From assembly GCA_905178155.1 (NCBI GenBank), contig CAJINV010000013.1, positions 2,050,281 through 2,114,280 on the forward strand: 64,000 bases of DNA, written 5' to 3'. A model generated the notes under the pieces. The model was not told the DNA's origin. It ran no database searches and saw only the letters and a program-made list of their open reading frames with translations. The position numbers and the translations under genes are program-made. This DNA comes from Amoebophrya sp. A120. Lineage: Eukaryota; Protista; Dinoflagellata. Every line of letters begins with the position of its first letter. Within the stretch, counting starts at the first letter, position 1. This document shows, piece after piece, positions 6,820 to 47,767 of the stretch.

Positions 6820-8323
6820 CTACGATTGAGAATTTGGCATCGGCTCAGACATGGGCTCTTCTACGCTGTCGTGGTTCGACGTGCTCACGCTGTTGTTCGC
6901 ACTGCCTAGGGGTGGACTCAAGTGCATCTCTTCGTCCTCTTCCTCCTCGTCCCCGTGCGGTACTTCCCCAACATCGTCGTCGACCAAGAAGTCGGGGTCG
7001 ACGCCACTGCCGTTCTCGACGTGATTCAGCTCGTCGTGGTCTCCGAATAAATGCTGGCTAAAGCCGCGCACGGAGCTTGAGTAGTCGCTTTCGCTTTCAC
7101 TGGAGCTACTGGACTCCTCCATCAGAGAGATACCGCCTATCAAATGTAAAAATGTCTGGGTCTGGAAGAATGCAAATCTGAAGCATGCAAAAATCTGTGT
7201 TGCATGATTACCAAGAGTCGTCCAGCTTTGACCAAGTCGGGAGGGAGTTTCTAATGCAGGATAGACATGAGAAAGATCGCACAGAATCTGCCATGCTAGG
7301 TCCTGCATTCCAGACCTCATGGGTCATGGAAAATCTGCATGACAATTCGCGCATTCTTCCAGACCCAGACATTTTTACACTTGACACCGCCGACGTGATG
7401 CTGATTCTTGTGCGGCTTCGGCGACCACATCGGAGCAGACGACCTTGTTCCAGCATTCACCTGTGCCGCGCTTGTTTGGTAGTTGTAATTATTGCTGGGT
7501 ACGTAATTGTGCATCAGAAAGGAGGCGCGCCGGTCCGCTTTTCGCATGGCGACGCGCGTGTGCCTGGCGGCGAGGGACTTGCGCAGGGATTCCTTGGCCT
7601 GAGAGGTGGTCTTGACGGCGAACGGGAGCAGAAGAAACCAGGAAACCGCGGCGGCCACCAGCGTGCCCTCCCACCCGAGCACTTTATGGGGTGTCAGAAG
7701 CGAAATCGACAAAAATTGGAGGACTGATTTGCCATGCAAAGAGAGGGATACCAGTTGCAGACCAGTTGCAGACAGTTTGTTTCTAAGTGGCCGCGCATGA
7801 CACACTTTGGCAGCATCGAAATCCAATTTATCATGCTGTTTGGGCAGAGAAGCTGCTTTTGTCATGTAAACCTCGAGCCCTTCTAAACACGCTTTTACTT
7901 ACTTACAATCGGCGTCACTTGCCACCGCCGCTCGCAAGACAGGCAGTTTGCGCTTTGGATTTTCTGCATTTTGCAGATTAAAATTTCAACTTTGTCAATT
8001 TCGATTCTGACACTTCCATACACCTCCGTGATCACATACTCCGCAAACGCCGCGAGGAAGTTGACCCAGTCGACCCAGACGCGCAGAAACGCGAGCACCC
8101 CGTAGAAAAATTCGTGTTGCGCCTGCGGCCTCAACCGGCTCGAATCCGGCGGGAGCAGGGTGGCGTAGTGGTAGACCAAGCCGCCGGAGAGCTCCCGCAG
8201 GGCATGCTGGGCCGCGATGGTTTCCATCAGCGTGTACGTGCTCACGACCCAGCTGCACAAAGCAAAACCGGCGAGCTTTCTCAGCCGGGACACGCGCGTC
8301 AAGCTGCTTCGCGTATGCAACAA
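6820..8323 (-). CDS. Hypothetical membrane protein with acidic C-terminus, split by two introner elements; 5' end may extend upstream
   Basis: ORFs 7895..8323, 7317..7865 and 6820..7320 join in frame (YVITEV|LGWEGTL and HHVGG|ISLMEE) after removing 341 and 254 nt; several hydrophobic segments. Confidence 0.7.
7138..7386. mobile_element. Introner element, family A
   Basis: TIR tatcaaatgtaaaaatgtctgggtctggaagaa / ttcttccagacccagacatttttacacttgaca; TSD ccgcc at 7133-7137 and 7387-7391; very similar to 37083-37344 but 13 bp shorter; GC-AG ends possible. Confidence 0.95.
7685..8020. mobile_element. Introner element, family D
   Basis: TIR tatggggtgtcagaagcgaaatcgacaaa / tttgtcaatttcgattctgacacttccata; TSD cactt/cacct; homologous to 33810-34116 in the opposite orientation. 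Confidence 0.9.
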
Positions 8324-9819
8324 GATAGAACTGCTTTGGAGAAGCGTTCGCCCTCGTATCCGTTGTATTTTTGGGTCGTCGAAACGTACTTACTTACTAG
8401 TACAACTAGGCGTGCTCTCTTATCGACGGAGGAGGTTCTTCCATGGGGCCACTAATATAGAAGCCATAGAAAAATCCTCTAGTACTAGAACAATCATCAT
8501 GGTCATCGTCATGATGAGTGGCTTTTTTACGGATATTATCGACTTGTCCTCCTGCGAGGAGCTATCAAAAGTAGTGGTATGCAAAAATGGACTGTTCTAC
8601 ACTATACGAACGAGTTGCTCATCTTCTCCTCATCAGACAATAAATCGAGGGATACCGCTCGAGCTGTGACAATTTGGATTCCAGGTCTGCAAGCAGTGCC
8701 GCCAGGGAATTCTTATCGAGGGCTTCTGCGGGTGTCGTGGAGGTCATCATCCCGCTGGTCGCCACTGCTGCGCCATTGGCTATACTAGTGCGGAGCATGA
8801 TGTTGACCTGGGCTTCGATAAATGACGTGTCAACAGACAAAGTGAGTTTCTACGTTAGATTGCTTTCTACGTGATTGAAATGGAGGACCGCCTTCTCCAA
8901 CTCGGAATAAAAGTTACTTAGTTAGTAGCCCCGATCTGCTCCTTCAAGTACGTAGACTGCCGCCATCACATTGGAAGAGGTACTGAAAACTAGGTGGATG
9001 TCAGCGGGTATTGAAAATCATAATCTACTTCGAGCAACATAGATACACCAGCTCCCGTGATAGCCGAGGAACATCAGAGGCCAGAATTGCCACCGACTTT
9101 CTGGTTAAGTAACATTACACAACTTTATACGCAACTCCTGTTGTAGTGATCTTCGAATGGACAAGGACTTGTTTCGGCACCAAAACGTCAAGAAGTGCGA
9201 CAATGCTGCATAGAGATAATTGCGATTGTTTTTCTCTGAACAAAAATATGATAAAGCACTTAAGCTTCGTCTTTCTCCTTCACCAGCAAATTAGTATCGA
9301 TTCTCGTGGTCCCTAATAAAAAATTGAGAACTTAGCATAGGCACTGATAGTGTACCTTCACTGCCTCATAATTCCTTCGACAGAGTTCAATGAGATAGTT
9401 AGCGGTACAATCGTATTCTGTTTTCTTCATCTATCGACATTGACGTACTCGTTGAGGCGTCCAACATCACGACGAACCCATGATAATGGGCATTAGATGC
9501 AACCGAAATGTGCACTCTGTGGCAGAAAAAAGGAAAATTAGTCATGGGTCGGTCCTCTCGGTGCGCTATTATGATATTAGGGCTGCGGCGTCGACACGAA
9601 GAAGTAACTTCTATTTTCCAAATTATCGTAAATAGGAACAAACAACAACAAACGAATCCAGCGATCAAAATTCAGGACACTAGAAACAAATCTGAGATGT
9701 CCCTCATGAATACTGAATATATAATTTTCAAACTCCGGACCTGCCACCTGGAACTGGTCCGCCCGATAGAAAGTAGAAGACGCCGACGTTGGTCGAAATG
9801 AAGTACATATTCATATCAA

Positions 9820-15502
<5,683 letters not shown>

Positions 15503-15512
15503 TTCAAACTTT

Positions 15513-15916
15513 TATTGTGAGGAAAAATCCCCCCTCCCCATATTGAAAGCGCGTCCAGCTGAAAATCTGTGATGCAGATTTGTCGCCACTAATCCTGTCT
15601 GTCTTGCATGCAGGCAAATCCAGAGAATCCGCCGCAATATCCCTGTGGTTTGTGATGCTGTTGGGCCTACACCATCGACGTTTTTCATGCTATGATGCTG
15701 TTGGGCCTACACCGTCGACGTTTTTCATGCTATGATGCTGTTGGGACTACACCATCGACGTTTTTCATGCTAAGCGCTTAAGCCAAAACCCCTCGGCTCA
15801 GGCTTAGCATATCATGCCTGCAGTCCTCCACTGCAAGACAAATCTGATTTGTGTACTGAAATCCAGCAACAGAAACTTCTTTTCGATATGGGGTAGGGGC
15901 ATTTTTCATTGTAATA
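15513..15916. mobile_element. TIR element, family B, 10 nt upstream of the proposed ADSS start codon
   Basis: TIR tattgtgaggaaaaatcccccctccccatattgaaa / tttcgatatggggtaggggcatttttcattgtaata; TSD acttt; internal 40-bp unit repeated 3 times (15653-15772). Confidence 0.92.
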
Positions 15917-16299
15917 ACTTTCGTTGCAAAAATTGTCTCTCGACGTCCTAGTACATCAAGTACAACTTCGGCAAAATGCTAGAATGCGTAGTTCTTGATG
16001 AAGGTGCTGTTCTTCTTGCAGCTAGTTCGCTGTATCAGCGGCCGTGCAAGCAGCAACATGATTCTCTTTCGATATATGAATGTGAAGCTGTTTGTACTGT
16101 TAGTTGTTGACACCGACGTCACTCGATCTCGTCGACGCAGTGAAAAATACCTTAGATAGTGGCTGGTCAAAAATTCCAGATGCAGATTGATACCACTTTT
16201 TCTACAACCGAGTAGCGAGAAGAAATCGATCTGAGAAGTCGTGGTCCATGTTCATGGCCATGATCCTGCTTATGGCTTTGTAGTGCGACCCTCTGGAAC

Positions 16300-16740
16300 T
16301 GTGCGGGAGATCCGGAGAATGCGCCTTCTCTTGTTTGAAGCCGGGCAAGGCAGGCCACGGCGCCGCACCGCTCGCGCCTGCGACGAAAATCAACTTCGCA
16401 TCGATTTTTGCAAATTTGCCCGCGTTTGCTGCGGAAAACCCGGACATTGCGCCTTCTCCTGTGTGAGTGAGGCGGTTCGTTGCAGATCACGCCGCCACAC
16501 CGTTTGCGCCTTGCTTCTCCCGTTTGAGTGAGGCGTTTCGCTGTAGGCCACAGCGCCACACCGTTTGCGCCTTGCTTCTCCCGTTTGAATGAGGCGTTTC
16601 GCTGTAGGCCACAGCGCCACACCGCCTGAGGCGAGAATGAGTTTCGCATCGATTTTGGCAAATTGGCCAGCGTTTGCTGTTTCATTTTGTGCGAAAAATC
16701 CGGAAAATGCGCCTTTTCCTGCTTGAGGCGGGCCGCGGCA
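16300..16740. repeat. Degenerate tandem repeat (~120-130 bp units plus a 61-bp duplication)
   Basis: 61-bp duplication at 16500-16621; ttcgcatcgatttt at ~16395 and ~16643; core gattttggcaaattggccagcgt resembles the 18.5-kb and 30.5-kb arrays. Confidence 0.75.
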
Positions 16741-17098
16741 GGCCTGCACAGCCTTGGTGCTGGTGGAACTCATATTTTTGTTTACCCTTCTAGATGAAGA
16801 TGAACACAGAGCAAAGTAAAACTGTCTGAACAGGACGAACCCAGTAGTACCAGTAAGCCCTCTACTAGGACAGCTTGCAAATCCAAAGCACCATCGTGTT
16901 CTTTTTCAGGCTCCGTTCGTTCTTCTACGCACAGGTGCCACGCACAGATGCAACAAACATCACATGCAGCTACACCTATTTCCACATAAAAATGTAGTCG
17001 CTAAATAATTTGATAGTTTGATCAAGAACAAGTCCCCGGTCTTCGTCAACATCAAAGGGGGCAGAGCCGGACCTTGTCTTCAACTAAAAATAGGATCT

Positions 17099-18052
17099 TC
17101 AGGCACTGTGCGTCGCCAGCAAGTGCTGCTTGAGGCATGCGAGAGGGTTTGCTTTGTACTCCGGGATTTTCACGATTGTGTTGTGGTAGGCAATCTTGGT
17201 TTCCTGGTCTTCGATGCGTTTCGCCGTTTTCTTGTCGTCCTTGGTCAGCTTAGCGGTTTGCTGTTTCAACAACTTCTTCTTGCTCTGCTGCGCGGAGTGT
17301 TGTCGCAAAGCAGCTCCAATCACGCTATCCTGAGGAAAACACGTGCGTCCCCTGTCCATACTTGCCACGCAAATCCGCATGCCCAAACTGTGTGCCATGC
17401 GGAGCTCCTCATAAAAGGCATATTCTATCTATGTACTACCTGAAAATTCGTCATGCTCCAATCAGGAGAAGGAACTCGATTTGGTGTGATGCGAGTCAGA
17501 CACGACGAAGTACACTAGTTGTAATGCAAAACGGCCGAAACTTTAACTTCCTGGCTTGTGTAGCGAGTCTACCACCTTGACTATCAGGCGGGGAGGACGA
17601 CGTCGTTTTTGCTAAGGATACACGCCTGTGCGCTGTTTCAGTAGACCGCGGGCCCCCGCAGGAGGTGGACGGCTCACGACAGTACGCTTCTTCTTTTGCA
17701 AGGTCGTGTTGTTCGCCAAAACAGCACGTGTGGTTGTGCGCTGGCTTCTTCCCGCAGCAGAGGCACGATTGTGCTGCTTGTTCAATGTTGTCGCCGTTCC
17801 GGATTCTTGGTCTCCTGCTTCTGAGTCGATTTGTTCCTCCGATTCTGATCCTGACCCCAAGGTCGTATCATGATCCACCTCGTCATCTTTTATGCGCTGC
17901 TGCTGTATGCGCTGCATTTTTTTCGCCAGTTTTTGTTTCTCCTTTCGCGGCAGCTTCTTCCAAGAATCATGGGCGAGAGAGGCCGAGTCGCTCTTTTTCA
18001 CCGTCAACAGCCGATTGGCGTGAACGGCGCCGGTTCGAAGCCGCTTGCCCAT
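17099..18052 (-). CDS. SLX9/FAM207A-like ribosome biogenesis protein, 2 exons
   Basis: ORFs 17612..18052 and 17099..17398 join in frame (QRTGV|IGAALRQ). C-terminal IVKIPEYKANPLACLKQHL resembles the SLX9/FAM207A motif (by eye); basic N-terminus. Confidence 0.6.
17326..17620. mobile_element. Introner element, family G
   Basis: TIR tatcctgaggaaaacacgt / acgtcgtttttgctaaggata; TSD cacgc on both sides; an internal block matches 12212-12393 in reverse orientation. Confidence 0.9.
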
Positions 18053-18479
18053 TTTTCTTTGTATAATCGTGAGTGAAAAATGATCAAATTCCTGCGTGCA
18101 GAGATATAGAATTCTACCAGTTCACATCACACCTGGAGAAATGAGCATAGTAGATGTGGTTGTTGATCTTGATCTACTAGACCTGGGTGATCAACAACAT
18201 GATGGCTGCCAAAATTTTTGAAGGAGCCAATCCATTTGGGTGTTGTTTCTTCACAGAGCAAGACATAAAATTTTCACCGCGCGACCAGCGCTTGGGGATT
18301 GGGATCTCCATGCTTTTTCGAGTGCTTTCTTTGTTGCTTCTGTCGAAGACGAAAAAGAACTCTGCATTGATCTTTTTGTTTTTGCGCGTGACTGAGCCTG
18401 AAAAAACTTCGAAAAATCGGCTAAGACGCCGAATCAGAATTTGAATTTCGTTTCGATTTTTTTTTTAGAAAGTTGGTCA

Positions 18480-19790
18480 GCAATTCACTCCGCAAAATTG
18501 CCGGGAAAGGCGCAAAGCATGCCTTCCAGCGTTGGAGAAAGAACGGCACCGAGAGAGCACGGCTGAGACGCAACAGGATTTTGGATTGATTTTGGAAAAT
18601 TGGCCAGCACTTCACCCTGCGAAATTGCTGAAAAAACTTGAAAAATAAGCCTACCAGCATTGAGGACGGTACCCAGAGCGCAGCTGAGACGAAACAGGCT
18701 TTTGAGGCGATTTTAAAATAAAATGGGCCAGCCGTCCAATCTTCAAACCTTTCGAAAAAGTCGCAAAATAAGCCTGCCCGCGTTGGAGGACGGTACCCAG
18801 AACGCGGCTGAAACGAAACAGAGTTTCGGGTTTTAGAAAAATGGCCAGCGACATGAAAAAATGGCATCGCTCATGCTGTGTCGCTGTGCATCACACGCTA
18901 TTCTTGAAATAAATGCTGCTACAGAAAACTTTTGCAAGACACACTTCCACATTCGGGGCCGCTTTTCACTATGGTATCCTTGCCTCCAGCTTTTGTTCCA
19001 ATATGGACTTGAAAAAAAAACGCCAAATGGATCGCCCAACGCTGAGCTACCGCTTGGCTTCCATGCGGTACCCAGAGCGCGGCTGAGACGAAGTTGGATT
19101 TTGGGTCGATTTTTGAAAATTGGCCAGCGTCCGACACTAAAAAATTGCCGAAAAAGTCGGAAAATATGCCTGCACGCGTTTGAGGACGGTACCCAGGGCG
19201 CGGCTGAGACGAAACAAGATTTTGGGGCGAATGATTTTTGGAAAATTGGCCAGAACTCGCCAAATGGATCGCCCAACACTGAGCTACCGCTTGGCTTCCA
19301 TGCGAGCGGTACCCAGAGCGCGGCTGAGACGAAGTTGGATTTTGGGTCGATCTCGATTTCTGAAAATTGGCCAGCGTTCCACATTAAAAAATTGCCGAAA
19401 AAGCCGAAAAATATGCCTGCCCGCGTTTGAGGACGTTACCCAGGGCGCGGCTGAGACGAAACAAGATTTTGGGGCGAATGATTTTGGAAAATTGGCCAGA
19501 ACTCGCCAAATGGATCGCCCAACGCTGAGCTACCGCTTGGCTTCCATGCGGTACCCAGAGCGCGGCTGAGACGAAGTTGGATTTTGGGTCGATTTTCGAA
19601 AATTGGCCTGCGTTCCACACTAAGAAATTGCCGAAAAAGTCGAAAAATATGCCTGGCCGCGTTTGAGGACGGTACCCAGGGCGCGGCTGAGACGAAACAA
19701 GGTTTTGGGGCGAACGATTTTGGAAAATTGGCCAGAACTTTACAGTCGAAAATTGCCGGAAAAAGCCGAAAAATAAGCCTCAAAGATATC
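18480..19790. repeat. Intergenic satellite, ~120-bp monomers arranged as A/B dimers
   Basis: ggtacccag(a/g)gcgcggctgagacgaa...gatttt(g)gaaaattggccag recurs about every 120 bp (gctgagacg at ~19082, 19203, 19323, 19450, 19565, 19686); interrupted at ~18860-19020. Confidence 0.93.
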
Positions 19791-22770: not shown

Positions 22771-24530
22771 TTACTCCACTGAGTTCCAGAAGTCCAGCGT
22801 GGACGTTGTGAGGGCGTTGTCCCGTTCCTTGCTTCGTATCTCCTGTATCGCCAAGGAAAGAAAAATCTAGCTGTGCACACTTGCTTTTTATTACAAGCAT
22901 TCTGCTCCGGCTCCGTACCTTGTCTTTACAATGTCCTTTGCCGTTTCAGCAGCACCGGGACCGGCCGAGACTTGTTTATAGAAAAACCTCTCCATTCCCA
23001 GTTCTTCTTCACGACAGGAAAATGCAAAAAAAGCTGCAAGAAGGACGCACTCACATGCAAAAAATCTTAAAAATGCGTACTGACTGCGTACGAAAGCTGC
23101 TTCTGCAGAGATTTCATGATGACAAGGGCGCAGCTCGAATTTCTGAAGCGACGCTTATTTCCGTCTGATAGCCTGTGCTTCGTATTCCTGGGAGAGCGCC
23201 GCTATGTCCACGTTTGCCATGTCGATTATCTCCGCTTCTGTAGATCAATTTCAATTTTAGTTTGTGACCAACATAACGGCGGATTCTTCTTCTTGCAGTT
23301 ACAACAGGGATCGGATTGGACCATAGCATACCACCAGAGGACCCAGAGTAGTTCATTTTATGCTCACTTTCTCCTCGTCGATTAAGTTTGAATAGTGCTA
23401 AAGCAATGGCTCATCTTGTTTTTCACAACTTTGTACAAAATCTACCGTCCGGCTCGGCCATCGGGTCTACTCCCATCTCCTCTTCCTCGGTGTATTGCTC
23501 TTCGTAGTCGTTATTGTAATAACTTCTCTGCTATCAAATGCAAAAGTGTCTGGGTCTGGAAGAATGCCCGATTTGTCATGCATTTTTCGCATGAGGCCTG
23601 ATGCCTGTAATGCATGTTCTAGCAACACAGATTTTTAGAGGGCTTCCTAATGCCTGTTCCGCATGAGAAATGCCCTCTCCGCGTAACACAAACTGGAGTC
23701 CTGTTGCTGGTCATGCAATACAGATTTTCATTTTTTTGGAATCCAAAGACAGCATTACAAGTTGCAATCTTCCAGACCCAGACATTTTTGCAATCCATAT
23801 CTGCTGCTTCCCGCCCTTGCCGCCACCGCTTTCTGATTTAAGACGAGAAATGGAACAGATTTTTGCTCAAAGTAGTTTGTGATACAATTACAAATGCACG
23901 GTGATTTTGTTTTTGATCCCGAAATATTATACCCGACTTTTTTCATTCTGAACCTTCAATCTAAAACGCAAGCAATACTTCCTTTCCCCTTCCCTCCTTT
24001 GCCGCCGCCTTTGTTGTTGCCTTTTGACTGCTTCCCGCCCTTGCCGCCCCCGCCCTTGCCACCTCCTGATTTCCCGCCTGATTATATTGGTAGAGATACA
24101 TCAGCTTTACATTTTGAAACAAACTAAAAGTAAAACTAAATGTCGCCAAAACCGGCATGACTTCCCGGCGGAAGTCTTGTTCTTTGCAAAGGCAAAGAAA
24201 TCCTTGTACTAGTTGGTCACAACTATTGCCAGCAAAAGGAAAATCTTAGTAAGCTCTAACCTTGCTCTCCTGCCTCCACGACGTCAAAAAGTTTTAGTGC
24301 TAACTGTGGATGAAAAATCGCTTACAACTGAAAAAACATTCCATACCGAAATCATTTTTGCCTCCTTTTCCGCCACCGCCGCCGCCCTTGTTATTTTGCT
24401 TTCCCATCGACTGTGACTTGCCGCCTTGACTGTTGCCATACTTGCCGCTGTTGCCCTTGCCGCCGCCACCCATGTTCATCTTCATCTTTCCCTGGTCGTG
24501 GTAACCGCCGCCATAGTCCTGGTACACCAT
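22771..24530 (-). CDS. Multi-exon protein with Gly/Lys-rich (GGKG) N-terminus; 3' end not determined
   Basis: MVYQDYGGGY...GGGGKGNSGKYG exon, SGGKSGGGKGGGGKGGKQSKG exon at ~23980-24080, GGKQQ|RSYYNNDYEEQY junction across the 23532 element, GTAAGT donor near 22774. Confidence 0.6.
23532..23799. mobile_element. Introner element, family A
   Basis: TIR tatcaaatgcaaaagtgtctgggtctggaaga / tcttccagacccagacatttttgcaatccata; TSD tctgc on both sides. Confidence 0.95.
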
Positions 24531-26487: not shown

Positions 26488-27192
26488 TCATTGTGCGAGA
26501 CCCCCGAGCGGCGGGGCGGGGGCCTCAGCTCGCTGCGCGCGTTGCGCCCGGATGGCGTCGACCCGCTCGCGATAGTTCGCAAGCACGTCCTTGCGGGCTT
26601 GCTGTGCGGCCTCCAGCGCCTCCTCGGCCGTTGCGGACAATTCCGGGTCGACCACTTTGCTCAGTGGGTAGGTCTCCCCGTCGTCGTCCATCTTCACTCG
26701 GACCGTCACTAACAGCTTCTGCGTTTTCTTGTTGTAAGTGACCCCCGCCGGGAGGGACTTGCTTGCCCCCCGCAGCTCGAGCGCCTGCTTGACCCGCGGC
26801 GGGGTGTCATTGTGCTTGCGCTTTGGCAGCGGTCTTTGTGGCTGCGGTGGCGGGGGCGGGGGTGCAAACGCCGCCGCAAACTTTTCCTCTGTGGCCTGCT
26901 GCTGGTTGACTCGCATGTGGATGAACGCGAGGCGGAGTGAGCCAAGCTTCTTCGGCCTAAGCGAGTTTGTTCGGAGACAGGGGATGCACGCACACCTGAT
27001 CTCGCGGATCCGCCAGCTGCGGGGGCGGGGCAACGTGGAGTCCGCGTACAGCTCGGGCAGGTTCGGAAGGTCCGGCGTGATGTCGAAGTCCGACCAGCTG
27101 CAGACCTCTCGTGACTTCAGTCCGACCAGATGCTACAAGTGAGATCTTCAAGGACTACTTACACAGAGCTGCGCTGCGCGCCAGGGCGTCAT
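26488..27192 (-). CDS. GC-rich gene with a putative AP2-like DNA-binding domain
   Basis: LPAGVTYNKKTQKLLVTVRVK...AEEALEAAQQARK fits the AP2 pattern GVxYxK + beta strands + EEA..AA..R helix (by eye). Frame is open from 27132; possible 30-nt GT-AG intron at 27133-27162 and ATG at 27192. Confidence 0.45.
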
Positions 27193-28441
27193 CCACAGCT
27201 CCGGTTAAATAAAATGGAGTTGTAGTACCTCCGTACTCCTTTCATTGCTGCTTTATCAGTGATTCAGCCATCTGCGGGAGCAGTCGCGGAGGAGAGGACG
27301 AGAACTTTTTCTTTACACTTATATATTTGTCACGTTCTTGCAATGTTGCGAGAGATCTTTCGCTTCTGACTGGAAACAGTAACAGGAACCACAACTACAT
27401 TGATTCATTAATCTATCGCCGGCGAGGACGAGAACACAAGCCAATGGCGTGGACGCGCAGCACCGTAGTTTTCATCTGGCTACGTGCAGTCAGTCTACTC
27501 GGTCGCTAGTTGTGCCAGTGGTTGATGTTTGCTGATATTGTCATGAACATGAAGACCGGTGGTCACTACAGAAGCAAGTCTTCCATTACCAATGTTTCTG
27601 AGCATTTTTTCATACAAGTGAAGCTTCGAAAATATTAAAGGTGATTTGTTCGAGACCACGCTCTCAACATCACCACAAGTCGCTTTGGTACAAGGAAAAA
27701 CACCGAAACTCAAATTCTACAGGGACAATACTGTTGATGAAAAGGTTTTTCTTTTGGAGCCAAAGATAAACAGAGAAAAATCTAGCGATACGGTACGAAT
27801 GAGATATTAGCATGATTGATGCATCAACGCAAACAATGGTATAAAATTCAGGTGGCTACTTATCAATCTTTCGTGGGCACCAGTGCAGCTGCACTTCGTC
27901 AACCCAATCTCAAAAAGCACATTGGATTTGGATGTTGAAACAAAATTAAGTATAAAACATCACGCGCGCGGGCACGTCTTAGCTGCATTAGCATTTTCAA
28001 ACAATTTTCTCGTCGACATGTCGGCATCATTATCAAATGCCTCTAACTTTTTCGGCGAGTTTTATTGATTTGGTTAGTTTACTACTTCTTCTATCCTTGT
28101 TGCCTTTGGTTACAGTTATCCGAGCTGTTACCGTTCTCTTTCTGCTCGAGAAAATATATGATGCACAGGCATTCAACTATACTTCCATGTGATGACGCAA
28201 ACGTCTCGTGCTCGTCTCTGACGTGCAGTAAAGTAAATTTCGGTCACCACTAATACTTTTTTTGCGTGCCATCTAGGGCACGGCCCAGCTCTTGTGGAGA
28301 TGATGGTAAAATAATTTTGCCTTCTACCAGTTGTTTCATTTTCACAACGTGCCTCGCATGGCTTGTTCTATGCGTGTCATTCATTTTGGATTCCGCAATA
28401 AACGCTATCGTTACCTAAGCCGTACAACACCTTCTCTCCTC

Positions 28442-31400
28442 TCAACACGCATCCACAAAATCGCTAAAGGAGACCCGGCCCAGACGCGTGATCTCGTGGA
28501 GTGCCAGCTTGAAGAATTCGTAAGTGAGCCCCTCGCGAATGCTCACCCCGTGGCTCGCGTACCGCCTATGCACTGCAAAAGCATCGCACTCGTAATTTGA
28601 TTTTATACAGATTGCAATTGTTGTGCGACGGAAATGATCCATCATCATCATCATCATGATCATCATCATCACGTAGTAGACACCCGCCCCCACTTCAATT
28701 TGCATGACAAACTCCTCTATTTTTCAGAAAAAGACTGTCACGCAAGTGATACTAAGTACTGAAACCAGCACGACTGTTTTGATGCAATGCGTAGGTCCAC
28801 TGTTGCTGCAGCACCATCTGCTGGTCAAAAATTTTGATAAGCTGCTGCTCCGTGAGATCGCAGACATCCAGCTCGTTCAAGAAAGTTGGGAAAATTCTCC
28901 GAACCATGATCGATTCGTACATCCCATTCTGCTTCCCCGCGGTGGTTTTCTGGCCTTGACAGGCCGCAATAAAGACCTTCTGGAGAATGCCGTCGGTCAC
29001 TTCCTGTTTTCGAAGTTTCATACAAAAATAAAAAGAAAATTTCGGGCTTCGTATACATAGTCTTTCTGCTGCTCCGCAAGAGCCCGTAGTAAGGAGCGTG
29101 ATCAAAATTATTGATTCAATCGGTGAAGTGTGAGAACATCAGGGGAGGCTCCCTTCTTCATCATAGGAAATAAGACATCGCATAAAAGTACTTCTTATTT
29201 TCAAGAACCAAAAACAAAATTCTTACCTCCGCAGTCGGGCCTTCGTTTGGCGCGAATCCGTTCAGGCCATTGCTGTTTCCATACTGGCCATTTCTACCAT
29301 GCCGACCGGTCGCTCCATTCTCGCCACCGAAGCCCCAACCGAGGCGGTCGAAGTCTTTCCTTTGTCATGCGGAAAGGCGCGCCCTTTACGCCGGTTTGCG
29401 CAGCCATAATCAATCGAATCCGTGGTACTTAGCAAAGAATAAGAAATGCATCACGATTCTTCGGATAGTAAGCATAAAAGGATAAAAGCGCGACGAGGTA
29501 GTGCTTTTTAAGTAAGTACTTCCTCCAAGGTGATGTTAGAGAGATGCCAGTGTCTTGCTTTCGAACCCAACAAACACACATGCAAGAGCAAAAATGTTAG
29601 ACATGCAAATCACAGTTCTTGGCAGAGAAATTTGATGAAAGGCGTGACCAATAGTCTTTTCCGCGCAAGCCGTTTGGTGCCTTGAATTCGCTTCGATATG
29701 CCGAAACGGTTCCGGAATTCCTCATCGGACAAAGTTTCGCCCGTGTTATCAACTGTAAAAGTGTCTGGGTCTGGAAGATTGCCAGGTTTGTCATGCACAT
29801 TTTGCATGACTCCTGATGTCTGTGATGCATGTCCTAGCATCACAGATTTTGTGAGGCTTTCCTGATGCCTATACCGCATAACAAATGCTCTTTCCGTGTA
29901 GCAAAACTTGGACTCTCTTTGCTGCTCATGCAATACAGATTTTTTTAGAATCCAAAATCAGCATGACAAGTTGGATTCTTCCAGACCCAGACATTTTTGC
30001 ATTTGATACGTGTCTCGGTTCACCCAATTCCCATTTTCGTCCAGATACCACTATCAGGCACAAAAAAGCAGGCAGGTCACATCTGTATTGCAAAAATAAA
30101 TACTAAAAAACCTGCATATCCATAACAGCGTGCTATGGCTGTGTATCTATTTTTGCATTATGCCCTGCCTGCTTTTTTCTCTGGGATAACCACCCGTCGG
30201 GAACCGCGTTTTCGTTCTCCATTTTTTCCAGAAATCTGCGCCTCTATTACAATGAAAAATGCCCCCACCCCAGAAGCATTGCAAACCCTTCCAATGAAAA
30301 CACTCGCCCGCTTGCATGTATTAACATCACAGATTTGGAATCGTGAATAGCGAAAATTTGTATCGCAAAAGATCCCTGCAGGAGCGGCGATCGTCATGCA
30401 AGCGATGCTCCTGTATACGACCACTAGACTCTGCATCCGGAGTGCCCAATTGTAAAACGCATGAAAAAAATGAAAAGTCCCTGTTTCGACGGCTGAGGGC
30501 CGGCAGGTAGTGGGCGCAGGCGTTTGAAACGAAAAAAAAAATCCGCCTGTTTTGAAAATAGATAGCCACCGTCCTGTTGTTGCAAAACGCATGAAAAGAA
30601 TGAAAGGTCCCTGCTTTCACGGCTGAGAACTGGCAGGTAGTGGGCGCAGGCGTTCGAGACGAAAAAAAAAAATCAGCCGATTTTGAAAAAATGGCCAGCG
30701 TCCTGTTCTTGTAAAACGCATGAAAAAAATGAAAAATCCCTGCTTTGACGGCTGAGGACCGGCAGGTAGTGGGCGCAGGCCGCTGAGACGAAAAAAACAA
30801 CTTACCCGATTTTGAAAAAATGGCCAGCGTCCTGTTCTTGTAAAAATCCCTGCTTTCACGGCTGAGGACCGGCAGGTAGTGGGCGCAGGCCGCTGAGACG
30901 AAAAAAACAACTTACCCGATTTTGAAAAAATGGCCAGCGTCCTGTTCTTTTAAAACGCATGAAAAAAATGAAAAATCCCTGCTTTCACGGCTGAGGACCG
31001 GCAGGTAGTGGGCGCAGGCCGCTGAGACGAAAAAACCAACTTACCCGATTTTGAAAAAATGGCCAGCGTCCTTTTCTTGTAAAACGCATGAAAAAAATGA
31101 AAAATCCCTGCTTTCACGGCTGAGGACCGGCAGGTAGTGGGCGCAGGCCGCTGAGACGAAAAAAAAAACTTACCCGATTTTGAAAAAATAGCCAGCGTCC
31201 TGTTGTTGCAAAACGCATGAAAAAAATGAAAAGTCCCTGCTTTCACGGCTGAGGACCGGCAGGTAGTGGGCGCAGGCGGCTGAGACGAAAGAAAGAACTT
31301 AGCCGATTTTGAAAAAATGGCCAGCGTAATGTTCTTGCAAAACGCATGAAAAAAATGAAAAATACCTGCTTTCACGGCTGACGGCCGGCAGGTAGTGGGC

Positions 31401-34400
31401 GCAGGCGGCTGAGACGAAAAAAACAACTTACACGATTTTGAAAAAATGGCCAGCGTCCTGTTCTTGTAAAAAGCATGAAAAAAATGAAAAATCCCTGCTT
31501 TCACGGCTGAGGACCGGCAGGTAGTGGGCGCAGGCCGCTGACACGAAAAAAACAACTTACCCGATTTTGAAAAAATGGCCAGCGTCCTTTTCTTGTAAAA
31601 CGCATGAAAAAAATGAAAAGTCCCTGCTTTCACGGCTGAGGACCGGCAGGTAGTGGGCGCAGGCCGCTGAGACGAAAAAAAAAACTTACCCGATTTTGAA
31701 AAAATAGCCAGCGTCCTGTTGTTGCAAAACGCATGAAAAAAATGAAAAGTCCCTGCTTTCACGGCTGAGGACCGGCAGGTAGTGGGCGCAGGCGGCTGAG
31801 ACGAAAGAAAAAACTTAGCCGATTTTGAAAAAATGGCCAGCGTAATGTTCTTGCAAAACGCATGAAAAAAATGAAAACTCCCTGCTTTCACGGCTGAGGA
31901 CCGGCAGGTAGTGGGCGCAGGCGGCTGAGACGAAAAAAAAACTCAGCCACTTTAGTCGTACCATAGTCCTCCTTTCATGCATGCCAAAAAGTTTTCACTT
32001 GAAAACTTCGCATCACAAATTATTCCAACTTTCGGGGTTGGGGCATTTTTCACTGTGATAGCCTCGCCTCGTTCTTCGTCATGGTCGGATCTGCCGTGCC
32101 CGTCCAGCCCTGGTAGGGGTATGCAAGAAAAAAAACTGTGTAAGTGTAACTTTGTGTTGCAGACGTTGCAATACAATTACACTTGTCATGCTGGATGTGC
32201 ATCAAAGGCTATTTTCATACGCGTTTTCGCGTACTGCCTCCGCATGACAGGTTTTCTCTGTCATGCAAAACAAATCTGTGATGCTGTTCCCGCAAAAAAA
32301 GTTACAGTATACACACTTTTTTTCTTGGATAAGAGGAGAGTACTCTCGAATATCGAGACAGCAGACTAGATTATTCGGTTCTTGCAAATTGCACGACACA
32401 AAAATCCTGGGTTCCTTGACGAACCAGCTGTAGGCAGATGAACTGATTGAATTTCACCGACGTAAAAAGCGGGAGAAAGTTTGTTCAAACTTAGTTCTCA
32501 ATAAGAACATCATCATCAAGTAAAAAAATACTTTGACATATGCAAAGGCGTTATCCCCGAGATTTTTGACCAAGGAGTTCGAATTTCGCAGGCTGCCACC
32601 TTCTTCGTCCGCTCCGATCGGGTTCCCGTCCTCGTCCAGCAGCTCGCCGTTCGGCCCGTACCTCCGGTTTTTATTCCCATTCAACCCGTCGTGGTTGTAC
32701 CCCCCTCCACTCCCATCCGCGGAACCTCCGTACCCGTTGCCGGCAAAGCCGTCGCCCGACCCGTTGCTGCCCGTGCGGATTTTGTAGCCGTCCTCCTCGC
32801 AGTCGTAGTAGCCGTCTTCGTCCCCGTTGCCCGGTCCGCCGAACCGGCCGGACCCGTTCAGCGATCCGTTGCGGTCACTCCCCCGCGTGCCATTGCGGGA
32901 GGATCCGTCCTTCGATATCGCAAGGAAAAATCCCCCCTCCCCATAATGAAGAGGTAGGTTTTCGAAAATTTGTGTTGCTGATTTGCGCCTTAGTTCTGTC
33001 CTCTCAGTTGTGTTGCTGATTTGAGGTCACAAATCACGTTTGTGTTGCAAGAAGACAAGGGCAGCAGCTTCCGTCCCATTATGGAGCCGGTTTGTCATGC
33101 TGTTGAGCCAACATCACGGACGCTTTTCATGCTAAGCGCCTAAGTCAAAGCCTCTCTACTCAGGCTTGATATGGGTCTCCAGTCCTCTTTAGCAAGACAA
33201 ATTTGTGTACTCAAATACTGCATCACATCAAATTTCGTTTTCGATATGGGGTGGGGGAATTTTTCTTTTTGATATTCGAGCCCGCGTGGGCATTTTCTGG
33301 GTCGTTCGGGTCGAACTTGTATCAATTGCAAATTATCGATCTGTGTCTGTTGTATGAGTGCAGATATTAATTTGGGTTTGGCATGCTGGTGCTTTTGCAT
33401 GAACCAGAAGGCCTGGCCTGCAAGTCCTAGCATCACATCACGCCTTGCAAAGTGAGGAGGTGCCCCGAAATAAATGCATAATCCGCATGAAAAAGTTCCT
33501 CTACTTTTGTATGCCAAGTTCCTTTAGGCAGCCTTAGCCTTTGCTGTTCATGCATAACGGAGTTTGTATTTTGTGGTGCTTTAATACTTCTGCGTGATCA
33601 TGCATTGCAGTCTTTCAGACCCAGATCTTCGACATTTGCAATGCATAACGCGCTACCGTACCGGCTGTTCCTGCCCTTGCCGTTTTTCCCTCCGTTTTTG
33701 TTCTGCGCCTTCTTCGTGCTCCCCAGAAACTCCTTTACATCGACATTGCCATCCTCATCTGTGTCGATGGCCTTGTAGATTTCCTCCGCAGAGCCACCGA
33801 ATAAAAAGTTATGGAAGTGTCAGAGTCGAAATTGACAAAATCGAAATAATTTGCCATGCATAAAGTGGATTCCAGTGCGGACCCAGTTTCTACGTGGCGC
33901 ATGACAAATTCTGGTGGTGCCTAAATACAGTTTGCAATGCTGTTGAGGCAAAGAAGACTGATTCTCTCATGCTGCTTTAGCAGTTCGAGCTCTAGCCCCG
34001 AACAGGCTTACAATCGGCCTCACTTGCCTGCTCTGCAACACACGTACCTCGCGTCATGCATTTTACGCATTGCAAATGATTTCAACTGTGACGATTTCGA
34101 TCCTCACACATTCATAAAAGTCGATCGTGTCGTAGTCGGGCCAGATTTTCGGCAAAATCATGTTGAGGCCGGAGGACAGCTCGATGTAGGCGAGGCTTCC
34201 GTTATGAGAGTGCATAAAGCGATCCCCCGACCCCGTGCCCGTGCGCTCCTAATTTGTCATGAAAAGTAGAACCAAATAGATCCACTGGTTGTCTTGAAGT
34301 AGTCTCCACATGATAGATGACATCAAGTGTCGGAAAAAAACACAAAAAGTACGCTTACGCATAAATCTGTGTGCAGATTATTGTCATGCGAAAGCTACAT

Positions 34401-35380
34401 CTGGGACACTGCTTCTGTTGCGAATCTTGCGCTCCAACTGAGAAAAAGGGGGACGAGCTGTGCACTCTCATAGCCGTTGGCGTTGAAGTCGAAGAACTGA
34501 AAGGCGCGCCGAAGCGTCTTGTACTTCATAGTCAGGAAATACCTGGAGTAGAGTGGCGGTATACAGTCTGTCCTCTATGGAGCAGCCACGGCTTCTTTTC
34601 GAAACAGCTCTATTTGTTTTCGCAAGAACTACCCAATAATACCCATGCCCCACGAGAAGGTCCGTCGTCCGACCTGCTCGTGCGTGGGAGCGGCAGGTGG
34701 GAAGCAGAAAAGCAACCACGACAACCGCAGAGGGCAAATTCCCATGGCCCGGCGCCCAATGCAGCGCTTGTTCTTAGCGCAGTTTTTCGAGTAGTACGCT
34801 TTCATGCCTTCAACGAAAAGCCTATTACTTGAGCTGTATATATTGCAATGTAAAATCAACTTTACTAGAAGCTACACACCTACCTCATGGCTCCCGCTGG
34901 GCTGCTGTCGTCTACTTTCCGCGCTTTTATAGCCGCGTCGAACTCGCCTAGAAACGTGGCCATTGTCCTATCACAATGAAAAATGCCCCCACCCCAGAAC
35001 TTCAACTTCACAGCTATTGCTATTGCAAAGCTTTCCAAGGGACACATTCCCCATCTTTTACATGTTTCAGCATCACAAGCTTTCGATTCTGAATAGCTAA
35101 AATTTGTGCTGCACAAGAGCCCCGGAACAGCCGGGCCTGTTATGTAAAAGATGCCCTGCTCGCCTGGACTCTGCATCAGAAAGACTCGCAAGAACCCTTT
35201 CATGCGAGACAAACAGTTTCCATTTGGAAAGATCTTTGCATCAGAAACATTTCCAACTTCGGGGTAGAAGGGGCACTTTTCAGTGTAATATGTTCGCAAC
35301 AGCTTTACCTTCGCTCGCTCCGGCCCAAGCATAACCACGCGGTCCCCCCGTTGCGCGTTTCGCTTTGCGCGTTCGAACTC
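28442..35380 (-). CDS. EF-hand-containing multi-exon protein; probably the 3' half of the large gene upstream, ends uncertain
   Basis: Spliced exons give RRAFQFFDFNANG|SLAYIEL and IYKAIDTDEDGNVDVKEFL (canonical EF-hand loops), Gly/Asn-rich exon ~32545-32915, NEAR|RRFLEKMENENAVPDGW|YLDENGNWVNRDT|GETLSDEEF. Confidence 0.75.
28567..28793. mobile_element. Introner element, family C (eroded TSD)
   Basis: TIR tatgcactgcaaaagcatcgcactcgta / gatgcaatgcgta, similar to 43099-43256; lies between protein-like exons. Confidence 0.7.
29747..30008. mobile_element. Introner element, family A
   Basis: TIR tatcaactgtaaaagtgtctgggtctggaaga / tcttccagacccagacatttttgcatttgata; TSD cgtgt; removal gives VNRDT|GETL. 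Confidence 0.95.
30052..30188. mobile_element. Introner element, family F
   Basis: TIR tatcaggcacaaaaaagcaggcagg / cctgcctgcttttttctctgggata; TSD accac; removal gives PDGW|YLDE. Confidence 0.9.
30245..32060. mobile_element. Introner element, family B subgroup, expanded to 1.8 kb by an internal satellite
   Basis: TIR tattacaatgaaaaatgcccccacccc / ggggttggggcatttttcactgtgata; TSD gcctc; flanks are homologous to the 322-bp copy at 34969-35290. Confidence 0.92.
30454..31945. repeat. 129-bp satellite, about 12 units, with a 4-unit higher-order repeat
   Basis: Unit starts (aaaacgcatgaaaaaaatgaaaa) at 30454, 30584, 30713, 30842 (deleted), 30952, 31081, 31210, 31339, 31468, 31597, 31726, 31855. Confidence 0.97.
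32120..32331. mobile_element. Introner element, family E
   Basis: TIR tatgcaagaaaaaaaactgtgtaagtgtaac / gttacagtatacacactttttttcttggata; TSD agggg/agagg. Confidence 0.85.
32916..33274. mobile_element. Introner element, family B
   Basis: TIR tatcgcaaggaaaaatcccccctccccata / tatggggtgggggaatttttctttttgata; TSD ttcga; removal gives HAGSK|DGSSR. Confidence 0.93.
33320..33647. mobile_element. Degenerate introner element, family A-like
   Basis: TIR tatcaattgcaaat / cagacccagatcttcgacatttgcaatgcata; eroded TSD acttg/acgcg. Confidence 0.7.
33810..34116. mobile_element. Introner element, family D
   Basis: TIR tatggaagtgtcagagtcgaaat / atttcgatcctcacacattcata; TSD aaagt; removal gives DTIDF|LFGGSAEEIYKAIDTDEDG. 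Confidence 0.92.
34203..34472. mobile_element. Introner element, family H, inserted in an EF-hand loop
   Basis: Perfect 12-bp TIR tatgagagtgca / tgcactctcata; TSD tccgt/gccgt; removal of 275 nt rebuilds DFNANGSLAYIE. Confidence 0.92.
34969..35290. mobile_element. Introner element, family B subgroup
   Basis: TIR tatcacaatgaaaaatgcccccacccc / ggggcacttttcagtgtaata; TSD tgtcc/tgttc; 327-nt removal is in frame. Confidence 0.9.
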
Positions 35381-35384
35381 GTGC

Positions 35385-35675
35385 TATGCATCGCAAATAT
35401 GGCTGGAGGGTCTGGAAAGTTGTCACGCTTGGCTAACAGGAAAGAAAAATCAGCTATGCTTGTTCGCTGCCCTAGAGCGTCGCTTTCATTTTGTGCTGCA
35501 TGAAAGTGTCACTCACGTTCCGAAACACAAACACGCAGTCGCTTAATAGGAACTACTTGTCAAGTACATACAACCACGTGGCCTTGATGTAATGTGAATA
35601 TTGGACTTGTTCAAGAACATCTATCATTGCAGTATAACTTCATTCCCGGCCCGGACTACATATTTGCAATCGATA
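35385..35675. mobile_element. Degenerate introner element, family A-like
   Basis: TIR tatgcatcgcaaatatg / catatttgcaatcgata; eroded TSD cgtgc/cacgc. Confidence 0.7.
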
Positions 35676-35971
35676 CACGCTCAATCGACGCAATCTCCTC
35701 CTCCACGAATTCCTTCTTTTGCAGCCGGGTTTTCAAATATAAGAGCGCACAACGCCCCCATCCCTTCCCTGAAGTGCATAACGAGCCGCATCACAAATTG
35801 CCTATTACTTACACGCGGAGCTTCTACATGAAGACTAAATTCGCGCACGGGGTGTCGTGCGAGCAGTTTCTGGGCGGCTTCCGAAATTTCTATAACCTGT
35901 GGTCATGCAGCAAAGCGCGCCAAAACAAGGAAGGGCTTGGCCGCTAGTGTAGTCGTTCGCATTCTGCGACA

Positions 35972-38900
35972 TCACAGATCATGAGGAAGTGGAGGGGAAG
36001 TTGTGCACTCCGATATCGGCCTCGGCGGCGGCTCGGGGATCGTGAAGCTGGACCGTTTCGCGGTGCAGCGAGGCAATCCAGCCGGCTGTGACGATCGTCG
36101 ATTTGGGGGCGCGCCCGTCGCACCTCCGTGGTCCGCCGTGGCTGTGGCTGCGCCGCCGACCGCCGCAGAAACCGCCGCCCCTTCCTCGTTTTTGGAAGCC
36201 GGACTGCTGCCGCTGCTGTGCCCCTTCAAGCTCCGCCTGGCTCCCGGATGGTCCTCCATGTGGTGGTCCGCAGCGCTACTACTTCCCGTCTCGTCGGAAT
36301 CTGGTAGGATTCGATTTTGTCTTCGCCGTGAAGGCGCTAGTACTCACAACTGAGTATGTATTTCTCATGATATTACCCTTTCACTATGCAGCCTATGTTT
36401 TAGGTGCATCATGAAGCCCATTTCTTCATAAGTACTCAGACCGATCAATCATTATTCAGAAAAAAACCTCGTCCTACTAGGCGGGATCAGCTGTTGTACT
36501 AAGTACCTGCCGGCGTGACTTGGTTTTCCAAGTCCTCTGGTCTCGGGCCCAAAACGCCCTGCCCGGGCACGAGCTCGTCTTCCTGCACGATGAGCTTGAG
36601 CAAGTTCCCCACGGCCGCCGCCGCGGCGTCCACGCTGCGCTGCAACGTCGGGTCGTTTCGCGCCGCGGCTTCGACCCCGTCCTTCAGGTGCACGACGGCG
36701 GTCCCGGATGGTTTCGCTAGAGCCTCGCCCTCAGTTGTGTGACCATTGGTCCCACCTGCAGCAGCTCCCGCGTTCAGAATCCCGGAGGAAGAAGAGGCGT
36801 TTCCGTTATCCACAGCCTGGTGCGGCAGCTCGTGCTCCGCCTCTCCCCCTGCTGGGTGTCCGAAAAGATTCGCGGCGGGCAAGTGGTGCAAGCCGGCGGA
36901 TTTGATCGCGGCCACGTGGTCCGATCCAACCGAGCCGACGGAGACCCGGCGGACCGGTTCGTTGCTCATCGACCGGTTCGTGACCGACCCCGGCAAAGGC
37001 TCCGCGTCGTTGTTGTAATTATCTGTCTCCTTCGAGCCGATTTGGATGACCGAGACCCGGCGTCGCCGTTCCACGCTCGCTTTATCAAATGTAAAAGTGT
37101 CTGGGTCTGGAAGAATGCAACTTGTCATGCTAAATCTGAAGCATGCAAAAATCTGTGTTGCATGATTACCAAAAGTCGTCCAGTTTTGACCAAGTCGGGA
37201 GGGCGTTTCTCATGCAGGATAGGCATGAGAGACTTCGCACAGAACCTGTCATGCTAGGTCCTGCATTCCAGACCTCATGGGTCATGGAAAAGCAACATGA
37301 CAAGTCGCGCATTCTTCCAGACCCAGACATTTTTGCATTTGATACGCTTCCCGCGCAGACGACAAATTCATCTCCCGCTCTCCCCGCGCGCTGTTGGCCG
37401 TGTTCTGTTGTGCTGTTGAAGACAATGTGACCGAGGGCCGCCGGGAGATGGAATTCACTTCTTCCGGGAGCGCCAGCAGCTGCTTCGACAGACGTGGCGT
37501 GTTCTGTTTCGAGGCATTGGACGAGGCGGGCAGTTGCTGCGACGAAGAATGTTGCTGCTGCGAAAATTTCTGCAGACTCTCCGCCAAATCTTCCGTGTTG
37601 TTCAAACTGGGACGGCGACTGCTGTTCCCCGTGAAAGCCGGGAAAATGTTGATGCTCAGATCGTTCTTTTGCAGTCCTCCTACCGCACTTTTCGTCGAGT
37701 CCGGGAACTCGACCTCCTGCGGGGGCAAAACCAGCGTTGTGGTGGAAGACAAACCCAGCGACGGTCGGTGCTTCAGCTGTCTCGTCCGAGCTTTCGAATT
37801 TTCAACCTCGACGTGTTGACCTGCGCCGGGCTTATTGGACTGCGACTGCGGCAGGGTCGTCGTGGTCTCTATTGACTCATTCTGATTTATTGTCCTATTT
37901 GCATCACTCCTGGAAGATGATGACATGGCATCTCCTCCATCGATCTGCGTTATTTTGATCTGGAAGGCTGAACGTGCTGCCCCAGCCGCTGAAGTAGATG
38001 CTCCTTCTCGTTCTTCACTGGGAACAATACAGCAGCTGTCTTGCTGCGTAGTAGAAACGTCCTCGCCGACCTCCAGAGAATGGGAATTCGTCGCCACCCC
38101 AACCGTTGTGCTGTTGTCCTGGTCCTCCTCGTGCAGCGCACTTGTTACCTCTGCTCGTCCTCCAATTTCAGTTTTTCTACTGCTGTCCGTTTCCAAGACC
38201 GCACCTCCACGTAATATAACCGGAGGCTGCTCCAGCTGCATACCAGGAGCACCACGCCTCACCGGACTGCCACCGCTCGTTACACCCCCGCCGGGAAGCG
38301 CGGGCCGCATCGGACTGGCGGTCAAAACTCCGTCTAAGGAGTTGCTGCTCACGACGGAATGAAAATCACCTCCTGCTGGAGCAGCTGCGCCGACGTCCTC
38401 GCCTGCTGCACTCGGGACTTGCATTTTTGGCGAACTTCTCGGCTGTTCCTGAATACTGGGAAAGGAGAAATCTGTAATGCTGGTCCACTTTAGGGACGTC
38501 GCCGTCGTGCTCATGGAGCCGGAAGACTGCGGCGGCTGCTGGCTGTTGTTGCAAAGTAGACTGGCGTTCACCTGCGATTTGGATTTGGAAATGTCGTCAA
38601 ACGCGCCCAGAATGTTGGAGGACCGGTCGTTCTTCAGCTCCTTTGACGGTGAGCTCAGCGATGCGATGGTCATGGGCGGCCCGGACGGCAGGATCTCCAC
38701 CGGTTGGGAATACTGCTGCCGACTCAGCGACTGCCGCCGCGGGGGCGAGGGCTTAGAGGATGTGTTTTGTCCCAATGCAAAATTTTGGGCGGTGCTCGTG
38801 GTGGTGGAAGTGGTTACCGCCGACTGGTTGTCGTCGAAACTCGTGTGCGGCTCCACGGGCTCGATGTCTTGCATCACTCGAGAGGAGGGACCACGTGACG

Positions 38901-47693: not shown

Positions 47694-47767
47694 CTGGTAT
47701 TGTTAGGCACTGTCTTGAGACCGGTTCAACGCGTCGTCCCCTCCTGCGGCGGGACCAGGGGCTTTGG
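47694..47767. repeat. 74-bp dispersed copy of 51727-51800
   Basis: ctggtattg(t/g)taggcactgtcttgagaccggttcaacgcgtc(g/c)tcccctcctgcggcgggaccaggggctttgg; 2 mismatches. Confidence 0.95.

Follow-up and report, generated by a model that had tools for sequence, protein, structure and literature searches.

Introner elements of the dinoflagellate Amoebophrya sp. A120 have been described as non-canonical, RNA-supported introns that resemble miniature inverted-repeat transposable elements (MITEs), with a hairpin and direct repeats of 3-5 nt (Farhat et al., 2021; PMC7789003). Their inverted repeats begin with TAT, 7 nt and an A-run, and the available passages of that paper describe splice sites that vary relative to the hairpin (Fig. 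3 legend), by 1-5 nt (Fig. S23 legend), with no clear signature. About 65% of A120 introns are removed without GT-AG and without detectable U1, and the accessible literature treats the mechanism as an open question. Similar elements, with terminal inverted repeats (TIRs) and target-site duplications (TSDs), make introns both ways round in Aureococcus anophagefferens and, for several classes, in Polarella glacialis, with one boundary set in the TSD (Roy et al., 10.1101/2020.10.14.339549, available text), and a survey (PMC9860276, in the text available) allowed for opposite-orientation matches. According to the accessible part of a review (PMC11282704), TIR/TSD-derived non-canonical introns of Fritillaria borealis are reported to be removed by an adapted spliceosome, and the nonconventional introns of euglenids are excised as full-length circles.

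In this work we examined a 64,000-nt stretch of contig CAJINV010000013.1 (the window), in which such elements interrupt protein-coding genes. An exon of the host gene purA (adenylosuccinate synthetase) at 11974-12204 (minus strand) is 100% identical to A120 protein P0001 and 87% identical to A25, and another window exon matches A120 protein P0010 at 100% identity; because of these identities the window is assigned to A120. The elements are the published A120 introners, with which they share the organism, TAT TIRs, the A-run, direct repeats, repeated families and removal from transcripts. We observed that they occur in both orientations relative to transcription, carry a 5-nt TSD and are removed as the span from TAT to ATA plus 5 nt, in the sole cutting register that fits. 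This fixed register is probably a new and simple positional splicing rule for a known class of element.

The original prediction, made from the sequence before any search, held that one introner family sits in both orientations relative to transcription and named inverted sets in families A, D and G. The members concerned are listed below. Four runs were aligned to 6400-18250, two as contigs (X1 and X2, one sample) and two as raw reads (X7 and X8); the RNA status of X1-X4 is presumed rather than taken from the record. Elements past position 18250 were judged from sequence and reading frame.

7138..7386, family A introner, orientation 1, perfect 5-nt TSD; skipped from 7131 to 7386 in the X1 and X2 contigs (254 nt, span plus 5)
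15170..15450, family A introner, orientation 2, in purA; skipped from 15165 to 15452 (286 nt, span plus 5), with no GT/GC-AG register
23532..23799, family A introner, orientation 2, perfect TSD; retention leads to a stop
29747..30008, family A introner, orientation 2, perfect TSD; retention leads to a stop
37083..37344, family A introner, orientation 1, perfect TSD; removal of span plus 5 gives a 1083-codon minus-strand frame, retention a stop after 21 codons
45126..45377, divergent family A introner, closer to orientation 2; removal of span plus 5 restores the frame
12212..12393, family G introner, in purA; skipped from 12206 to 12394
17326..17620, family G-like introner, weakly inverted relative to 12212 (z 10); skipped from 17320 to 17621
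7685..8020, family D introner, same orientation as 33810; skipped from 7679 to 8021
33810..34116, family D introner, same orientation as 7685
15513..15916, family C introner lying shortly before the purA start, orientation 1, from the TIR scan and inversion test; not among the listed joints
32916..33274, family C introner, orientation 1, from the inversion test
58511..58830, family C introner, orientation 2, inverted relative to 15513, 32916 and 59068; removal of span plus 5 restores the frame

To compare orientations, 35 nt were cut off each element end to drop the TIRs, and the interiors were aligned on both strands. In family A, 7138 and 37083 match on the same strand (z 73), and both match 15170 (15169 in the original prediction), 23532 and 29747 as the reverse complement (z 32-52, vs. 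0.6-12.7 on the same strand). The proposed inverted set, and with it the claim that one family occurs both ways round, was thus borne out for family A; the elements at 45126 and 33320 group weakly with 15170, 23532 and 29747. The family G pair, 12212-12393 and 17326-17620, is inverted as proposed, though the match is short and divergent (local score 43, z 10, vs. 19; global alignment +31 inverted vs. -41; BLAST match of 44 nt at 82%). Family D had been misread, since 7685 and 33810 have interiors that align in the same orientation (z 32 vs. 0.9, with a full-length plus-strand BLAST match); the supposed inversion was probably one TIR arm aligned to the other, which is seen in same-orientation copies too. 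Family C, overlooked at first, has 15513, 32916 and 59068-59393 inverted relative to 58511 (z 17-37), a clearer case than family G. A de novo TIR scan of the window gave 39 TIR-bounded matches, some redundant, vs. 0-2 in three shuffles, and the elements have the attributes of MITEs: short, TIR-bounded, with a constant TSD and many copies.

Transcript contigs X1 and X2 provide at least 18 usable joints among those listed, 3 of them at GT-AG introns and 15 non-canonical. They comprise 15 rows of the joint table plus 3 joints taken from contig pieces whose record coordinates are continuous; the joint 13913 to 14731, which contains extra letters, was excluded. Both orientations of family A (7138 and 15170), both G copies and the D copy at 7685 are skipped, and removal is therefore not confined to one orientation, in agreement with the original prediction. 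The skipped elements lie in three genes:

6494..9034, minus strand, host of 7138, 7685 and 8314, 345 aa, extent from the transcript contig
9205..15502, minus strand, purA, carrying 12212 and 15170 (PF00709; P0001 identity; intact spliced frame), 9205 being where the transcript contig ends
16859..18198, minus strand, SLX9-like host of 17326, extent from the transcript contig

Once spliced, the host of 7138 and 7685 yields a 345-residue minus-strand open reading frame identical to annotated P0010; its single tested exon gave nothing in Pfam. In the Pfam search of four exons no match was obtained for three, and the SLX9 match is weak (E 2.6e-4, under the Pfam cut-off). Joined at the observed joints, purA has open frames of 69 and 363 residues, and its product aligns to the A25 orthologue with a single 3-residue gap. 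Beyond 18250, removal of span plus 5 restores reading frames and retention runs into a stop; the host of 37083 then has 1083 codons on the minus strand vs. 204 on the plus strand. The hosts of 23532, 29747 and 33810 are assigned to the minus strand by codon score, and no annotated protein was found around 33810 among the proteins of up to 2000 aa that were searched. A minus-strand position, as first stated, is thus supported for all named host genes, by homology or long restored frames, with those three placed by codon score.

In every case the removed piece is 5 nt longer than the TAT...ATA span, for 13303 once a nested element is taken out. The register can be read where the two TSD copies have diverged, as the transcript then shows which letters were kept. 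We used an anchor-free grid over cut offsets, and by-eye TIR anchors after automatic anchoring had misplaced 6 of 15 elements. The grid has a single solution, with the 5' cut 1 nt before TAT and the 3' cut 4 nt after ATA (1/4 register). It fits 15/15 non-canonical joints and 86/90 motif bases, and the runner-up cell fits 10/15. All ten joints that slide by no more than 3 nt agree with it, as do six joints with only a 0-1 nt repeat, and two old introners fix it exactly:

10200..10511, old introner whose TSD has decayed; joined from 10195 to 10513 with no repeat that would let the joint slide
11213..11412, likewise an old copy with a decayed TSD; the joint runs from 11208 to 11414, again free of any sliding repeat

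Because 1 + 4 equals the TSD length, the exon is restored whatever the orientation or target sequence. The rule also predicts T as the second base of the intron, and all nine predominant A120 splice types in Table S4 of Farhat et al. (PMC7789003, available part) have it, which provides indirect outside support. For A25 the table points to a TT start.

The joints could also be artifacts of reverse-transcriptase template switching at hairpins flanked by direct repeats, or could reflect removal at the DNA level. A hairpin with a direct repeat is the classic template-switch substrate, and the elements match it; the presumed RNA status of X1 and X2, the runs that supplied the joints, leaves room for this view. 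Against it, the six joints with a 0-1 nt repeat keep the same register, retention puts stops in purA and other hosts, the joined purA product stays aligned with its A25 orthologue apart from the 3-residue gap, and the purA contig has lost its GT-AG introns as well. Partial contig pieces retain outer introns, which fits stepwise RNA processing. X5 and X6 contain 0.90-0.91 of the words of an intron-containing stretch; they may be the source sample. We consider template switching or DNA-level loss unlikely and give it very little credence.

Another explanation is that cryptic GT/GC-AG sites, different ones in each orientation, are used by an ordinary spliceosome, as happens in the P. glacialis and Aureococcus introners. 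Such spliceosomal, either-orientation introners exist, and 7138 does have a possible GC-AG register. At the other 14/15 non-canonical joints no register offers GT/GC-AG, and a GT/GC donor with an AG acceptor, as in canonical U2 introns, is possible at 1/15 joints. The original prediction had named cryptic canonical signals in each orientation as the finding that would count against it, and 14/15 joints do not have them.

Further evidence comes from a scan for the family A TIR motif, which recovered at least 135 metagenome loci; all counts that follow are for the loci and copies listed. The copies provide evidence at the level of metagenomic DNA sequence. One assembly accounts for 134 of these loci, and L127 is the sole one from another. 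None overlaps the window exons, the long matches L023, L055 and L100 being matches to elements. Among 138 distinct complete family A copies, 104 have a perfect 5-nt TSD (lengths of 3, 4 and 6-9 give 0-2 copies, a length of 2 gives 18) and 117 have TAT/ATA ends. Element orientation can be called for 97/138. Applied to 31 window elements, the codon-based strand caller made 27 calls, 26 of them correct. For 62 copies whose strand was called, the two orientations number 36 and 26 (p 0.25), with 40:34, 28:25 and 23:16 at other thresholds, and 12/23 within-locus pairs, which need no strand call, are opposite. The count of sense and antisense insertions that had been proposed as a check thus gives no significant bias for family A. 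Retention breaks the frame in 62/62 copies, in both orientations alike, and span plus 5 is the best of three removal lengths in 45/62. The +1 position takes each of the four bases, and the acceptor each of the 16 dinucleotides, among 90 strand-called copies. A GT/GC-AG register occurs on either strand in 17/104 perfect-TSD copies and in neither strand of the remaining 87, and the TSD shows no enrichment of GT or AG. The cryptic-site explanation is rejected by the joint registers together with these copies, and we assign it hardly any probability.

We next consider what could read the element ends. A logo of 34 window elements, 18 of which have a perfect 5-nt TSD, shows TAT at +2 to +4, an A-run at +12 to +16, ATA at -7 to -5 and free junction bases, with U at +2 in 34/34. 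Each TIR arm provides NTAT when it is the 5' end and a T-tract (-19 to -15) plus ATA when it is the 3' end, and the donor-like NTAT and the U-tract, with TTGAT in family A, are therefore present on whichever strand is transcribed. The branch-point-like TTGAT lies at -10 in 6/6 family A copies of both orientations and is not common across families. For young copies, stems of about 21-37 bp are predicted at the ends, and in 13/14 the prediction pairs TAT with ATA. In older removed elements this pairing is not predicted in 7/9, three of them being nearly without a predicted end stem, and they keep the register all the same. This suggests that short end motifs probably weigh more than a perfect stem. 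The original prediction, that removal depends on symmetric features bringing the TSDs together, holds insofar as it is the symmetric TIR ends that carry the signals; the cutting is polar (1 nt/4 nt), and the predicted loss of pairing in older elements speaks against stem pairing as the only driver.

Bulge-helix-bulge style processing, also proposed, requires a 4-bp central helix between the two cuts. Such a helix was found in 0-2/34 elements at six offsets, and 34-49/136 positions are paired vs. about 51 expected by chance. With the central helix missing and pairing at or below chance, this geometry is rejected.

With little more than even confidence, we favor removal of the introners by a modified spliceosome that reads the element ends. 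Introners would have spread through a DNA-transposon route. The 5' arm would act as a relaxed donor, N-U-A-U, and the 3' arm would supply a branch adenosine, at -7 or -5, as well as the U-tract at -19 to -15; the acceptor may be chosen by distance rather than by AG, and the TIR stem would merely help draw the ends together. The reasons for this choice are that A120 keeps U2, U4, U5 and U6 and all but 6 of 89 spliceosomal proteins, with U1 undetected, that 15% of its canonical introns have the same layout of inverted and direct repeats (both from PMC7789003, available text), that Fritillaria offers a precedent, and that old copies are removed without a predicted terminal pair.

The alternative nearest to the original idea is a separate, non-spliceosomal nuclease-ligase, of the kind suspected to act on euglenid nonconventional introns, that would recognize the TIR end through its TAT:ATA pairing and cut it with a 1/4 stagger. 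The unconstrained +1 and acceptor bases, the strong stems of young copies and a fixed offset from a conserved paired motif, which recalls the +4,+5/-7,-6 pair of euglenids, all agree with such an enzyme, and Farhat et al. (PMC7789003) conclude in the available text that the mechanism should differ from the common machinery. The older removed elements with no predicted TAT:ATA pair do not agree with it, nor does the failed bulge-helix-bulge geometry, and no candidate enzyme turned up, though none was sought. We regard this enzyme as possible, at distinctly less than even credence. The broader form of the idea, a second RNA processing system in A120, independent of the spliceosome, that would remove any transposon with TAT...ATA ends by a 1/4 stagger corresponding to the 5-nt TSD, is tentative and somewhat more doubtful still. 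If true, every insertion would be harmless to the protein regardless of orientation or target, and the system would be a general RNA-level transposon antidote, letting thousands of families invade exons.

Several points weigh against removal by a modified spliceosome or against the register rule. A spliceosome normally requires G+1 and a terminal AG, and both are free in A120 introners. The enzyme is one that we infer, and recognition by a transposase would account for the symmetric end motifs just as well. Both ends of young copies are buried in predicted stems; the branch-like TTGAT is specific to family A (T at -9 in 15/34 elements); and the drift of +1 to G in older copies (7/16 vs. 5/18, p 0.48) is not significant. 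The logo is partly circular, its 34 elements having been found through their TAT/ATA ends. The 15 joints, which come from three genes in one sample, served both to derive the register and to test it; 21 further joint rows lie outside this test, and most joint rows are flagged "between: not known". On 6400-18250 the raw reads of X7 (14 reads) and X8 (9 reads) show no joints.

Additional features were observed in and around purA. At 9944-10513 the public A120 purA model P0001 diverges from the transcript-derived product past residue 393, the latter staying aligned with A25; mis-set non-canonical borders are probably the cause. An introner at 13312-13466 is nested in the 3' end of an older introner (13304-13820), and contig pieces stop at 13466 with 29 unaligned letters and the outer 5' border retained, which fits inner-first removal. 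A likely 8-nt purA micro-exon (14543-14550) is flanked by a GT-AG intron and by an introner with a short A-like element, ending at 14232, inside it. A perfect-TSD introner at 10584-10793, of the same family and orientation as 32120-32331, sits within a canonical GT-AG intron. The GT-AG intron at 12467-12637 has the look of an old introner, with G-TAT, 7 nt and an A-run as well as a 6-nt repeat, and may represent conversion to a canonical intron. Family G copies carry a CAT microsatellite at 12277-12310 and 28642-28675; the second copy (28567-28720, approximate ends) is oriented like 12212.

Elsewhere in the window, a perfect-TSD introner at 30245-32060 owes its length of 1.8 kb to a 129-bp tandem array, with related units at 16375-16715 and 18461-19780. 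A large insertion at 39930-41880 has a family C-like TIR at its start, palindromes at 40191-40326 and 41523-41573, and a 109-bp array. Positions 47694-47767 and 51727-51800 form a 74-nt duplication at 97% identity.

We found no statement on the orientation of A120 elements or on a fixed register in the literature as far as its text is accessible; figures, theses and subscription papers may show the register. The available main text of PMC7789003 contains "strand" 0 times and uses "orientation" in passages about gene blocks. The accessible parts of PMC12130899, PMC11282704, PMC11453091 and PMC12005148 hold nothing on A120 element orientation or register, and that of PMC13326754 nothing on Amoebophrya or element orientation. 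Compared with the variable sites of the Farhat account, the elements described here show a single register, a strict 5-nt TSD and near-even orientation. If it holds genome-wide, the rule N/TAT ... ATA-NNNN/ turns the described border variability into one positional code. It explains how insertions need neither a target sequence nor an orientation, it should correct gene models such as that of purA, and it yields predictions of the precise intron ends and of candidate branch points, which makes the choice between a spliceosome and another enzyme directly testable.

The orientation finding alone is of modest interest, being known in other introner systems. The original prediction assumed that spliceosomal introns, with their polar signals, cannot work both ways; this premise fails, as the P. 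glacialis and Aureococcus introners do so (10.1101/2020.10.14.339549, available text) and are spliceosomal, and orientation is thus uninformative on the enzyme. In the available text those introners have GT/GC/GA donors, AG-type acceptors and particular TSDs, with an orientation bias in classes 6, 8 and 10, whereas A120 family A needs neither dinucleotide and has no significant bias. The euglenid analogy drawn by the original prediction holds in overall shape, namely non-canonical ends, direct repeats and a paired motif at a fixed distance from the cut (PMC3935182, available text), and breaks down beyond that. The end-joining stem of euglenid introns has a predicted counterpart in young A120 copies, which is weak or absent in several old removed ones. 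Euglenids are an unrelated lineage, with CA/TG at +4,+5/-7,-6 and pyrimidine/purine junctions in the same source, in contrast to TAT at +2 to +4, ATA at -7 to -5 and free junctions in A120. The introns of F. borealis, in the source text available, favor AG-AC and AG-AT ends, whereas A120 fixes the second base only. We concluded that the elements, and the creation of introns in either orientation, are already known, and that A120 differs from the P. glacialis and Aureococcus systems in doing so without near-canonical splice sites.

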